Source of the DNA: Nitrospirales bacterium
Lineage (GTDB): Bacteria; Nitrospirota; Nitrospiria; Nitrospirales; UBA8639
DNA length: 64,000 nucleotides
Assembly (NCBI GenBank): GCA_963555755.3
Contig: OY820905.2
Location: 192,001 to 256,000, forward strand
Direction: 5' to 3'
The notes beneath the pieces were generated by a model, which had not been told where the DNA came from, did no database searches, and worked only from the letters and a program-made list of their open reading frames with translations. The translations under genes were made by a program, and so were the position numbers. This document shows positions 36,319 to 53,615 of the stretch, piece after piece (position 1 is the first letter of the stretch; the number at the start of each line of letters is the position of its first letter).

Positions 36319-38290
36319 GTAGAGTAGAACACTGGTGCTCACCTGGAGCTACTCTCGAACGCTTCGACGCACGCGTCTACCACGGACCACAGCAGTCAGC
36401 AATTCCCAGCGCCCCCTCATCAATCCGTGCGTACAGTTTTCCCGTACACGGCTTTCCGATGTTCTTCGTCAGAACGCATGCGCCCGTTTCCAGCCAGCTA
36501 TCGTGGGAAGCTTGAACAAGCCGTATCGAGCATAGAGCATGGCCGTGGGAAACTGCGCATACCCTGCCGTCCGGCTTTTCACCTTGTGCCGTTTGCGGAG
36601 GTGCGCGCGCAGTCGCTCTTCCACATGCCATTTCACTCGACCCAAGCCCTTCGAGCTATTGCGGTAGTGGAAATAGCCCGCCCACCCGCGCACGTACTGG
36701 TTGAGCGTCGCCACCACATCAGGGAGCGGAATCGGGGTCCCACCACGAGCCGTCATCTGTGTCACTCGTGCTTTCGCCCGCTGGATGGATCGGAGGGACG
36801 GCTCCACGTGCGGGTAGACTTTCCCGCTCGTGCGTCCCGTCCGGAGACCAAAGGAAAACCCGAGAAAGTCAAACCGTTCCTGCCTGGCGTTGACTTCCCT
36901 GGTTTTCTCCTCATTGAGGCTCAGCCCCAATCCCTCCAGCAAGTGGTGGAGGACCGTCATTGACGGAGCCACCTCCCCCGCACAGAGCACCACCAGATCA
37001 TCGGCATACCGCACGATCTTGGCTCGGAGAGAGCGTCCAACCTCTGGACGTGCCCAGCTCCGATCCACCTCATGCAAGTACACGTTCGCCAAGAGCGGGG
37101 AAATCACGCCGCCCTGGGGTGTACCCCTCCGAGGGCCTTTGCCCCCACTCACGCGCGTTGTCCCGTGTCCAGCTTCCTCGACCACCGACACCGTTAGCCA
37201 TTGCTTGATGAGGCCTAAGACGGCCCCATCCGCAATCCGTTTGGCCACGGCGGCCATCAGGTTGGCATGAGGAATGCTGTCGAAATACTGGGACAGGTCG
37301 GCATCAATGACAGAGTCGTACCCGGCGTGTAACGCCGTTGCCACCGCATCGACCGCATCATGGGCAGACCGACGAGGACGAAACCCATACGAGGTCTCGC
37401 AAAAGTCCGCCTCGAAGATCGGCTCAATGACCAGCTTGACGGCCATCTGCGCCACTCGATCGGTGATGGTCGGAATCCCGAGGGGCCGGTGGCCCCCATC
37501 CTGTTTGGGCCGCCACACCCGTCGCACCGCTTGTGCGCGATACCGCTTACTCTTCAGCTCGGCTTGCAGCTTCCTGAGGAACGCTTCTCTCCCTTCTTCC
37601 GCGTCGATGGCCTCCCACGTGCGCCCGTCTATTCCAGGAGCACCGTGGTGTGACCGGACCAAGGCATAGGCGTGACTCAGAATGTCCGCCTGGATTACCT
37701 TGTCGTACAACGCATAGAAGCGAAAGCTAGATTCAGACTTGGCCTTCCGATACAGCTTCCTCTGTAGTGTCCTGATCGTACTTGGGGTTGATAGCGCCAT
37801 GGCAATCCCCGGATCCTCCACTCGTCGAAAGCGTGAACAAAGTAGGGTCCCTTCCCTCGGACCGGGTTATGTTGTCCCAGGCCCTCTAACGGTACTATGA
37901 ACCCCTCCGACTCCCACGACGGCCCTCAGCGATTTCGGTCTCCCTTATACGCCTTGGTTGCGGGTTCTGCGCCCGCACCGTCGTGGGTCTCCCGTCCTGC
38001 ACGGTGTCTCTTCCGCCACATGCCGCCCCTGCTACCCCGGAAGATCCTGAGGGTGGGTGTTCGTTCTACTCCCTCAGACAGCGGCCTTCCCCTTCTGACC
38101 ACAGGGTCGGCATCTCCAAATAAGTCACGAGGCTACGTCTAGGTTCGCTTGCGCTACGGCCTGCGGCTTTGCCCATGGGAAACTTCAACCCCTGATTACT
38201 CAGACGCTGCTTCCCGGTACTAGAAAGGTGTACGAACAACTCCTTTCGCGGGACTTGAACCCGCTAGACACACCGCCGATGACGGCATGC
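36319..38290 (-). mobile_element. Group II intron A, copy 1 (1972 nt)
   Basis: Domain V AAGCCGTGTACGGGAAAACTGTACGCACGGAT, 3' end ...CTACTCTAC; boundaries set by comparison with copy 2; inserted at TTGACC|CC. Confidence 0.92.
36469..37800 (-). CDS. ltrA: Group II intron reverse transcriptase/maturase (no endonuclease domain)
   Basis: GAPGIDG, RPLGIPT..DR, SYGFRP, PQGGVISPLLAN, RYADD, FDFLGF, RGW.GYF. Confidence 0.95.
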   Translation of the reverse strand: MALSTPSTIRTLQRKLYRKAKSESSFRFYALYDKVIQADILSHAYALVRSHHGAPGIDGRTWEAIDAEEGREAFLRKLQAELKSKRYRAQAVRRVWRPKQDGGHRPLGIPTITDRVAQMAVKLVIEPIFEADFCETSYGFRPRRSAHDAVDAVATALHAGYDSVIDADLSQYFDSIPHANLMAAVAKRIADGAVLGLIKQWLTVSVVEEAGHGTTRVSGGKGPRRGTPQGGVISPLLANVYLHEVDRSWARPEVGRSLRAKIVRYADDLVVLCAGEVAPSMTVLHHLLEGLGLSLNEEKTREVNARQERFDFLGFSFGLRTGRTSGKVYPHVEPSLRSIQRAKARVTQMTARGGTPIPLPDVVATLNQYVRGWAGYFHYRNSSKGLGRVKWHVEERLRAHLRKRHKVKSRTAGYAQFPTAMLYARYGLFKLPTIAGWKRAHAF

Positions 38291-38380
38291 GGTCAAGTCT
38301 TTTGTTGAGAGTTTCGACCAGAAAAATGGTGAAGCGCTAATTAGTCAACCCAAGATTTGAGCTCTGCTGATCCTGACCCC
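38291..38380. repeat. GGGGTC-ended palindromic unit; related units at 39181-39262, 48553-48689, 53364-53500 and a partial one at 53626-53687
   Basis: Consensus arms GGGGTCAAATCTTTGGTTGA(GAGTTTCG) ... (TTAG)TCAACCAAAGATTTGACCCC around variable spacers. Confidence 0.85.
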
Positions 38381-38397
38381 CACTCCGGTCTCCGTGA

Positions 38398-38468
38398 GGG
38401 GTGACCTGCTCAACCAGGTGGGCCGCAGTCTCCGCCATACGTCGGGCGCCACATGCCGGACAAAACCC
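38398..38468 (-). pseudogene. Fragment of an IS91/ISCR transposase zinc-binding region
   Basis: Translates GFCPACGARRMAETAAHLVEQV.P, matching the GFCPxCGARRM...A.HL motif. Confidence 0.75.
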
Positions 38469-38578
38469 TGTACAGAAGTCGGTAAGGATGCCTTGAAGGA
38501 AGGGTGGCCTCTTTGAGAAGAAAACTAATGAGAAACCTGACCGTTGATAATTGTCAGGGGTCATAGTATTGTTGAGCA

Positions 38579-38857
38579 ATGATAGAAAGTTTTCGGCACA
38601 AGGGGCTTAAGGTACTGTATGAGAGTGATAACAGGCAGAAAGTTCCCGCCGCTCATGCTAAAAAAATCGGACGTATTCTTGCGCGCCTGAATGAAGCGAG
38701 CAAGGTGCAGGATATGGGCTTGCCGGGACTTAAATTACATCCCCTGAAGGGGGACCGTGCAGGAATCTGGACTGTATGGGTGTCTGGAAACTGGCGGATT
38801 ACGTTTCGATTTGAAAGTGGAAATGCTTTCGATGTTGATTTGGTTGATTATCACTGA
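38579..38857 (+). CDS. higB: HigB (RelE/ParE family) toxin
   Basis: [18 protein letters not shown]...[14 protein letters not shown]. Confidence 0.93.
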
Positions 38858-38868
38858 GGAGAAAAAAT

Positions 38869-52551: not shown

Positions 52552-52807
52552 TGATGAGGGGGCGCTGGGAAGTGCTGACTGCTATGGTCCGTTGTAGACG
52601 CGTGCGTCGAAGCGTTCGAGAGTAGCTCCAGGTGAGCACCAGTGTTCTACTCTACCCTTTTCTTTTCATTTTCCTTTTTCCTTTTGTTGACCCCTTTTGA
52701 ATTGAATCAAGCACTCTAACCCCTTGACCATGCCTATGGTCGGGTGGCCACGGTGTAGGAATACACCGGCACGTTTAGTACCTGGGATATCGCTGTCGGT
52801 ACACGAA

Positions 52808-52879
52808 TACCATATCGCCGTCCTCCCCAACATCGATGCCGACAAAACCCGCAACCTCGCCAAAAGCGTCACCGTCGAG
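52808..52879 (+). pseudogene. Decayed fragment of the glmS 3' end
   Basis: Translates YHIAVLPNIDADKTRNLAKSVTVE, versus the GlmS C-terminal consensus YH.A...G.DVD.PRNLAKSVTVE. Confidence 0.82.
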
Positions 52880-53012
52880 CATTGAATGTAGGTGAGCTTG
52901 TCAAAAATCGAGTTAGAGCTCGCTAGAATTGTTTAAATTTGATATACCTCTACCAAGATTGAAGTTTTTGAGTCTTAGCTTTGGTGTCCCTCGAATAGTT
53001 TCTGGAGACCCT

Positions 53013-53282
53013 ATGAATACAAAAGAAATGGAAGAATTAAAACGACATTTTGGTGTTGTTGCAGAAGGGCTTCGGCACGAACTTCAGCAGGTGGCAGAAG
53101 GTCATCACGTTATCCTTACCCAGGTTCAAGAATTTCGGGAAGAAGTCAAGGAAGAGTTTAAAGAAGTTCGGGCTTTAATGAAATTTTCTTTTGCCGAACT
53201 TGATCATCGCATCCAATCACTTGAAACGGATGTTGGTGTTCTCAAATCCAGACTGGACCGCCTCGAAGCTCACCAAAGATAG
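53013..53282 (+). CDS. Small coiled-coil hypothetical protein
   Basis: GGAG RBS; heptad pattern, KRHFGVVAE...RLDRLE. Confidence 0.7.
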   Translation: MNTKEMEELKRHFGVVAEGLRHELQQVAEGHHVILTQVQEFREEVKEEFKEVRALMKFSFAELDHRIQSLETDVGVLKSRLDRLEAHQR

Positions 53283-53500
53283 TTCCAATATCTGGCCGGT
53301 TTGGCGGGCAGTGCCATATCCTACTAAAAAGAGTGCACCACCTCCTGGTTGCCTAGAAGAGAAGGGGGCAAATCTTTGGTTGAGAGTTTCGTTTCAAACT
53401 CCTCGCCACACTTTCATCCACTGCTTTTTTTCTGGGAGCGCCATCTTCTCTTCCGAGCAGGGGGCGTAATCTAAAGTTTTAGTCAACCAAAGATTTGACC

Positions 53501-53615
53501 GCATGCCGTCATCGGCGGTGTGTCTAGCGGGTTAAAGTCCCGCGAAAGGAGTTGTTCGTACACCTTTCTAGCACCGGGAAGCAGCGTCTGAGTAATCAGG
53601 GGTTGAAGTTTCCCA
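53501..53615 (+). mobile_element. 5' fragment (115 nt) of group II intron A
   Basis: Matches 48690-48804 and has the same upstream flank; ends 10 bp before a GGGGTCAA motif. Confidence 0.9.

Follow-up and report, generated by a model that had tools for sequence, protein, structure and literature searches.

Group II introns with a GCAUG 5′ end at the tips of REP-like palindromes in a Nitrospirales bacterium

A 64,000-nt stretch of the genome of a Nitrospirales bacterium (GenBank assembly GCA_963555755.3, contig OY820905.2, positions 192,001 to 256,000; here called the window) carries three copies of a group II intron family that begins with GCAUG. Group II introns are presumed to have given rise to spliceosomal introns, and few of their features are as constant as the 5′ GU. 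The introns described here appear to belong to class F in the wide sense (open reading frame [ORF] group g4), lack an endonuclease (En) domain and probably spread by reverse splicing into TGACC^CC, the tip of repetitive extragenic palindromic (REP) sequences.

Boundaries, class and the GCAUG 5′ end

The genome comprises one 4.61-Mb contig (C1) and one 14-kb contig. Genome-wide, YTGACC was directly followed by GCATGCCGTC at 12/12 5′ junctions, the sequence further upstream being otherwise unrelated, and 13/13 3′ junctions carried CTCTACCC with diverse sequence beyond, the intron ending in CTCTAC before CC. Since all of these junctions agree, the mobile unit is GCATG...CTCTAC, inserted between TGACC and CC, and its ends are fixed far beyond chance. 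The short pattern YTGACCGCATG matched the genome 21 times; nine of these matches are not introns, one possibly being a 5-nt stub at C1:1002588. In the window, the GCATGCCGTC decamer occurs exactly three times, at 38290 (−), 48690 (+) and 53501 (+), with TTGACC directly before each, as a reading made from the sequence alone (the sequence-only reading) had stated. That reading had also described CC after both full copies, which indeed both end in CTCTAC before it, and two intact, slightly diverged ORFs, which are identical at 429/443 residues. The intron copies and their parts, including the reverse transcriptase (RT)/maturase ORFs, exon-binding site 1 (EBS1) and intron-binding site 1 (IBS1), are as follows.

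36319-38290, minus strand: copy 1, full-length and uninterrupted, 1972 nt, GCAUG...CUCUAC
38291-38296, minus strand: IBS1 (TTGACC) of copy 1; 3′ exon CC at 36317-36318
38095-38100, minus strand: EBS1 (GGUCAG) of copy 1
36469-37800, minus strand: RT/maturase ORF of copy 1, 443 aa from ATG or 450 aa from an upstream GTG at 37821
36422-36456, minus strand: copy 1 domain V; its loop is GAAAA (5 nt), and it has a 2-nt bulge
36319-36418, minus strand: copy 1 domain VI, long, with its bulged A (36325) 7 nt before the 3′ end
48690-52655, plus strand: copy 2, a twintron, 1972-nt intron plus nested intron, 3966 nt in total
48684-48689, plus strand: IBS1 (TTGACC) of copy 2; 3′ exon CC at 52656-52657
48880-48885, plus strand: EBS1 (GGUCAG) of copy 2, in a predicted hairpin loop
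49180-50511, plus strand: RT/maturase ORF of copy 2, 443 aa; TIGR04416, 371.6 bits (cut-off 300)
50524-50557, plus strand: domain V of copy 2; the nested intron begins directly after it
50558-52551, plus strand: nested, unrelated group II intron, 1994 nt, GUGUG...CCCUAC; RT ORF at 51043-52356
52552-52655, plus strand: domain VI of copy 2
53501-53615, plus strand: copy 3, a 115-nt 5′ stump, cut off where a GGGGTCA tip starts (53626)

An RT search recovered relatives at 79 loci in many phyla, and the 5′ end could be placed in 60. Their 5′ pentamers were GUUCG (25), GUACG (22), GUAUG (12) and GCAUG (1, in a Nitrospirales metagenome-assembled genome, 78% identity), so that 59/60 follow a clade consensus of GUWYG. 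GUGYG, the usual start of group II introns, was found in none of the 60 and is replaced by GCAUG in 12/12 copies of the family itself. Sampling of the close subfamily in 200 further genomes from the order identified three GTATG copies in G159, one GTATG and one GCATG copy in G189, and one GCATG and one ACATG copy in G009; L018 starts with GCATG. The presence of GUAUG and GCAUG side by side in the close subfamily points to GCAUG as a single U2-to-C change (the C2 form) from the clade-typical GUAUG, within Nitrospirales. Copies of the C2 form lie at different sites in four genomes (this one and three others). Given GCAUG at all 12 junctions here and at different sites in the three other genomes, the prediction is that the C2 form can both splice and move.

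Pairing with the exon provides a register for the 5′ junction. EBS1 (GGUCAG, intron nt 191 to 196) covaries with exon positions −1 to −6 across 59 introns, with 6/6 pairs in 43, 5/6 in 13 and 4/6 in 3, and exon/EBS1 combinations such as CTGACC/GGTCAG, CTGTCC/GGACAG, CCGTCC/GGACGG, GATCCC/GGGATC and ACAGAC/GTCTGT. The mean number of pairs was 5.68, against 4.31 with permuted exons, and register shifts of −3 to +3 and of +17 yielded 6/6 pairs in 0/59 introns. Because EBS1 covaries in one register only, the 5′ junction is placed directly before GCAUG/GUWYG, and it is settled to the extent that comparison allows. The sequence-only reading had proposed both the non-canonical GCAUG 5′ end and the GGTCAG loop at 48880-48885 as EBS1; the register test and the 12/12 junctions bear out the former, and the predicted hairpin loop, the 6/6 pairing in 43/59 introns and the lack of fit in any other register the latter. 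The first base of the 3′ exon was C in 39/41 relatives and the second in 29/41. AUCUU at nt 245, considered as a candidate for EBS2, was rejected, being conserved whatever the exon.

The alignment of relatives is in register from nt 1, and a small hairpin at nt 5 to 16 covaries (CAG/CUG, GCC/GGC, GCCG/CGGC). An internal GUGUG (nt 18 to 22) lies in a variable linker and is peculiar to the subfamily of these introns. In this subfamily, nt 1 to 10 are predicted to pair with nt 14 to 23 in a 10-bp 5′ hairpin (−12.1 kcal/mol; z, −3.7; 48690-48712 on the plus strand and 38290-38268 on the minus strand of the window), which places GCAUG opposite the internal UGUGU. In this fold the U2-to-C change turns a U-G wobble into C-G, and the G1-to-A change of the ACATG relative turns G-U into A-U. 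With very few sequences behind them, these changes are suggestive of selection that may act on the 5′ hairpin. Mutual information between intron positions 2 to 4 and all alignment columns, used to look for an epsilon-epsilon′ pairing, returned lineage signal only.

Both 443-aa ORFs contain RVT_1 and GIIM only, with no endonuclease (D/En) domain, and the RT carries a YADD motif. The ribozyme core matched RF00029 (42.8 bits; cut-off, 40) and RF02005 (58.4 to 59.8 bits; cut-off, 49); copy 1 scored 58.4 bits with D1-D4-6 and 42.8 bits with Intron_gpII (cut-off, 40). Within the window, the Rfam scan located one group II core at 38025-38257 (−), a second at 48723-48955 (+) and that of a different intron at 50584-50721; domain V/VI was matched at 36319-36456 (−). 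The domain V loop has 5 nt (GAAAA) and domain VI is ~100 nt long with a bulged A; the 3′ end (..CUCU-A-CUCUAC) combines AY with this A, which the predicted fold places 7 nt from the end and which is kept in relatives. A 5-nt domain V loop and a long domain VI are hallmarks of IIE/IIF introns (PMC3753933; statements on cited papers refer to the passages of them that were covered). IIC and IIC-attC introns have a short D1, an EBS1 of 3 to 4 nt and no EBS2, and they insert behind a hairpin. The present introns do not fit this class: EBS1 has 6 bp, ~490 nt precede the ORF, domains V/VI are of IIE/IIF type, and the insertion site lies inside a hairpin arm. Among the relatives, L037 is the intron of Thiorhodococcus drewsii AZ1, whose RT is 62% identical and whose ribozyme is collinear; it is listed in ORF group g4 with boundaries 107-2100C (PMC3552965, Table S2). 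The boundaries derived here for L037 (GTATG...CTCTAT, 1994 nt) are identical to the published ones; because these start with GUAUG, a non-GUGYG start is already implicit in print for g4. From the likeness to this one listed g4 member and the RNA hallmarks, the family appears to be IIB-like (class F in the wide sense/g4) rather than IIC.

The sequence-only reading recognized the outer intron of copy 2 correctly but overlooked that it is a twintron. The nested intron (50558-52551, 1994 nt; Rfam D1-D4-4, 112.6 bits) directly follows domain V of the outer intron. Its family, which starts with GUGUG and encodes its own RT, occupies the same place in the seven ORF-less outer copies of the genome (nt 573 to 1809 deleted), all of which carry it; outer copies with an intact ORF number only two or three. 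Genome-wide BLAST also placed three nested-family introns head to tail at one locus (C1:2160016-2165998) and solitary copies at C1:1022311 and C1:1560268. The intron copy at C1:802706 has, besides the nested intron, an extra ~1.87-kb insertion (C1:799543-801412) at intron nt 1295. A second subfamily in the genome (~73% identity, five copies) starts with GTTCG directly after CTGACC, and a IIC mini-intron at ~3.78 Mb of C1 sits in a different repeat.

Insertion sites at the tips of REP-like palindromes

A ~140-nt repeat whose ends are inverted (GGGGTCAAATCTTTGGTTGA...TCAACCAAAGATTTGACCCC) has eight of the 12 5′ junctions at its right end; 73 of its arms (AAAGATTTGACC) were found in the genome, 7 of them followed by GCATG. 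A second palindromic REP family (GGGGTCAGACTCGATT...AATCGAGTCTGACCCC; 30 arms) is also used as an intron site. Two copies of the first repeat, resembling a REP doublet (REPIN) or miniature inverted-repeat transposable element (MITE), and a transposase gene between tips lie in the window.

48553-48689, no strand assigned: REP-doublet (REPIN/MITE-like) repeat, GGGGTCAAATCTTTGGTTGA...TCAACCAAAGATTTGACC; right tip split by copy 2
53362-53500, no strand assigned: second copy of the same REP-doublet repeat; right tip split by copy 3
53626-54350, plus strand: gene for an IS200-type Y1 transposase (53818-54249), with a GGGGTCAAATC tip (53626) on one side and a CTGACCCC tip (54343-54350) on the other

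Genes for a Y1 transposase with a DnaA-C-type helix-turn-helix gave 21 matches in the genome. The best NCBIfam match of these proteins is REP-associated tyrosine transposase (RAYT; NF047646; cut-off, 80), with 73.5 bits for the protein of this genome and 90.2 bits for that of relative L075. Classical RAYTs are single-copy, whereas the RAYT-like genes here are multicopy. Five of the nine RAYT-like genes examined are bounded by tips, with GGGGTCA ~50 nt upstream and TGACCCC ~1 kb downstream, and at C1:761649 the ends are those of the 140-nt repeat itself. Because such tips bound both the RAYT-like genes and the repeat arms, GGGGTCA/TGACCCC appears to be a tip common to RAYT-type elements and to their nonautonomous REP-like derivatives. 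TGACCCC is enriched 1.4-fold and TTGACCCC 2.1-fold over genome expectation. The sequence-only reading had proposed a specialist on this repeat motif, which can now be sharpened to the tip of RAYT-associated REP-like palindromes. The analogy with a repeat specialist holds. The target and the non-GUGYG start are clade-wide rather than local adaptations, and only the C2 form is local.

Further repeats and genes were recorded in the window and elsewhere in the genome. The IS200-type transposase (143 aa) has one full copy in the genome, a 91%-identical fragment and a 34% paralogue, and BLASTP found no relation to the RAYT-like proteins. Tandem arrays of tips (TGACCCC plus 4 to 17 nt) occur at the ends of RAYT-like elements and beside introns, at 36270-36318, 48541-48559 and 52680-52700 in the window and at C1:2173414 plus 1.0 to 1.3 kb; similar arrays flank relatives L055, L036, L085 and L080. 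Another repeat ends in ..GCAAGACCTGACC and is followed by CAATACTGTTCACTTAGAT in 11/23 matches (C1:361676, 983350, 1422432 and others), and two GUUCG-subfamily copies sit behind GCAAGACCTGACC. An empty site for copy 1 was sought, but none of the 30 other genomes searched has a close match to its 5′ flank. Other Rfam and tRNA matches in the window were 5_ureB_sRNA at 16738-17036 (+, 79.8 bits) and a tRNA gene at 133-205 (−).

The flanks of homologous introns, proposed earlier as a check, were related rather than arbitrary: among the 60 relatives, 46 sit behind ..G[AT]CC and 7 sit 2 nt behind GGGG[AT]CAG (GGGG[AT]CAGNN). An inverted copy of the rebuilt 16-nt site was present upstream at 12/41 loci compared with 5/379 controls (Fisher P, 6e-10), and within 170 nt at 8/37 loci; in one example the layout is GGGGACAGCATATCTA, 11 nt, TAGATATGCTGTCC, the intron and CC. 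Site 16-mers were repeated within their host genomes (11, 28 and 6, compared with 0, 1 and 3 for controls). A RAYT-like gene was present in the fetched flank of 13/79 loci, and two relatives, L036 (Desulfuromonadales) and L075 (Gammaproteobacteria), each interrupt the right tip of an element encoding a homologous RAYT-like protein. A sublineage with EBS1 GUCUGU/GCCUGU (L043, L064, L066, L069, L070, L080 and L082) sits 2 nt behind GGGG[AT]CAG, thereby using this kind of tip in another register and on the other strand.

It could be argued that the link to REP sequences and RAYTs is incidental, the intron reading only YTGACC^C and the tips being merely the commonest place for that string. Neither EBS2 nor recognition of a hairpin was found, 4/12 copies lie outside repeats, and the enrichment of TTGACCCC is only 2.1-fold, all of which would suit such an explanation. 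However, relatives with a changed EBS1 (GGACAG, GGACGU, GGAUGA) still lie 2 nt inside the ends of GGGG..CCCC palindromes, which argues for an association beyond a shared 6-mer. The sublineage with a different EBS1 likewise uses another register of the same tip, and in three phyla the intron has a RAYT gene as its neighbour. An incidental link was therefore judged unlikely, if still worth keeping in view.

Orientation, spread and rival explanations

With the origin (~2.70 Mb) and terminus (~0.54 Mb) placed by cumulative GC skew, the sense strand lies on the lagging-strand template in 15/17 copies, compared with 218/528 free YTGACCCC sites (binomial P, 9e-5). Insertion into the lagging-strand template has been reported for the En-less intron RmInt1 (PMC8914252). 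A route for the spread of the family can be proposed in which EBS1 of the excised intron RNA would pair with YTGACC on single-stranded DNA at the fork, on the lagging-strand template. The RNA would then reverse splice between TGACC and CC and be copied by its own RT from a nascent DNA primer, as for other En-less introns. Splicing and mobility of the family are inferred from these comparisons. The RNA data were contigs only, from RNA libraries X1, X2 and X21 and from X15, of unrecorded library type; those that pass from domain VI into the nested intron are unspliced.

Spread of the copies as passengers of REP/RAYT elements, by DNA transposition or recombination instead of retrohoming, with GCAUG copies as splicing-dead relics, seems improbable. 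Eight of 12 copies do lie inside the repeat, copies 2 and 3 have ~130 nt of identical upstream repeat in common, the ORF is intact in only two or three copies and missing from seven, and one relative begins with ACATG. Against this, the upstream repeat bodies differ while the introns are 93 to 100% alike, four copies lie outside the repeat, and the 3′ flanks differ. Moreover, every copy splits the same phosphodiester bond, the one predicted by EBS1, the orientation bias fits insertion of RNA at forks, and the C2 copies of four genomes occupy different sites.

That the 5′ splice site is really at the internal GUGUG (nt 18 to 22), the first 17 nt being a co-mobilized leader or upstream extension, a possibility already raised by the sequence-only reading for the GTGTG ~17 nt downstream, is scarcely credible: GUGUG fits the consensus, splicing upstream of GUGYG is on record by 8 nt (C.te.I1) and by 1 to 33 nt (fungal rRNA introns) (PMC4424553), and class F Ge.ur.I1-1 uses alternative 5′ sites in vitro (PMC3753933), but GUGUG is confined to the subfamily and unconserved beyond it (AAUAU, UAAGU and the like in other relatives), EBS1 pairing fails at register +17 (mean, 2.61/6; 6/6 in 0/59), the 5′ end lies 24 nt from the conserved UAGCGGGUU block, like the 26 nt in the canonical nested intron, and the inserted unit begins at GCATG in 12/12 copies.

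Several points weigh against reverse splicing of a class F/g4 intron into REP tips. Alignment of the RNA contigs with copy 1 revealed unspliced junctions and no spliced exon junction, lariat or excised intron. No EBS2 partner for exon positions −7 to −13 was found, as pair counts, inspection by eye and a complement search did not exceed permuted controls; this is in line with IIE/IIF introns, in which EBS1-IBS1 is decisive and EBS2-IBS2 dispensable for splicing (PMC3753933). Only ~17 of ~545 YTGACCCC sites are occupied, and thus recognition may extend beyond 8 nt, or activity may be low. A palindrome partner is missing at 4/12 junctions in this genome and, within the available flank, in 29/41 relatives, and IBS1 lies within a hairpin arm, so that a folded hairpin would hide rather than expose it. 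The RAYT-like protein of this genome scores just below the NCBIfam cut-off (73.5 versus 80 bits), the origin and terminus were inferred from GC skew alone, and the class placement comes from 62% identity and collinear RNA with one g4 member and from RNA hallmarks.

Insertion of these En-less introns into TGACC^CC by reverse splicing nevertheless remains the interpretation we consider probable. A broader proposal is offered tentatively, as one slightly more apt to be wrong than right. The multiphylum lineage may be a dedicated hyperparasite of RAYT/REP elements that splits the conserved GGGGWCA/TGWCC^CC tip of these hairpins, which belong to single-strand-DNA transposons, and re-tunes EBS1 as the tips change. 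In Nitrospirales, its GCAUG would break the near-universal GU rule, possibly through pairing of positions 1 to 5 with the internal UGUGU in the 5′ hairpin.

Significance and comparison with known systems

The kind of intron is already known. The literature searched, which included few subscription papers, yielded no description of the C2 form, of GUWYG as the start of the whole clade or of REP/RAYT tips as homing sites, except for an entry on Pseudomonas putida discussed below. As a proliferating family, the C2 introns provide a natural test of position-2 function, and the 6-bp EBS1 with one or two 3′ bases amounts to a very short, retargetable recognition code. IIC introns, S.ma.I2 and those of Robart 2007 among them, reportedly insert at terminator-hairpin or integron attC sites. 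If the reading given here is true, the present family would be a second case, beside IIC introns at terminators/attC, of introns living on recurrent hairpin DNA, and would tie together two elements, each of which works on DNA that is single-stranded at the replication fork. The target of RmInt1 is an insertion sequence (IS), ISRm2011-2, recognized with EBS1, EBS2 and EBS3. For class F/g4 introns, whose homing sites are blank in PMC3552965, the target finding supplies a niche, the tips of REPs tied to Y1 transposases.

The closest known introns are the En-less g4 introns (PMC3552965), which include the T. drewsii AZ1 intron and Pe.ca.I3. The T. drewsii member is alike in domain V/VI, in its ..CTGACC target and in size (1994 versus 1972 nt); compared with that listing, the present family has the C2 form, a high copy number, and ORF-less and twintron derivatives. 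In the g4 rows of the table the "Locus" cell is empty, and the 5′ pentamer is not discussed in the passages covered. IIE/IIF ribozymes (Nagy et al. 2013, PMC3753933) are likewise IIB-like and small, with a 5-nt domain V loop and a long, structured domain VI (IIF). They differ in that GUGYG-type sites were predicted for them, with alternative upstream sites used by Ge.ur.I1-1, and in that the passages covered mention no repeat targets. The 5′ junctions of C.te.I1 and of fungal rRNA IIB1 introns also lack GUGYG (PMC4424553); in those introns, however, GUGYG remains downstream and the ribozyme is altered, whereas the pentamer described here is positionally homologous to GUGYG and departs from it in sequence only.

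IIC introns at terminator hairpins/attC (PMC4028801, PMC7923331) share the absence of En, recurrent hairpin-forming noncoding DNA as a target and short base-paired recognition. The RNA class is different here, EBS1 has 6 bp, and insertion is within the 3′ arm, 2 nt from its foot, instead of behind the hairpin. RmInt1, also En-less (class D; PMC8914252), resembles the family in its lagging-strand bias (15/17 copies here) but differs in class. The use of REPs as landing pads is known for other mobile DNA, as IS elements insert at REPs (Tobes & Pareja 2006, PMC1525189). In P. putida KT2440, 2/9 group II intron copies were located at REPs (PMC1525189). That link between introns and REPs is minor in the passages covered, whereas the association described here marks a whole lineage and a defined bond in the tip.

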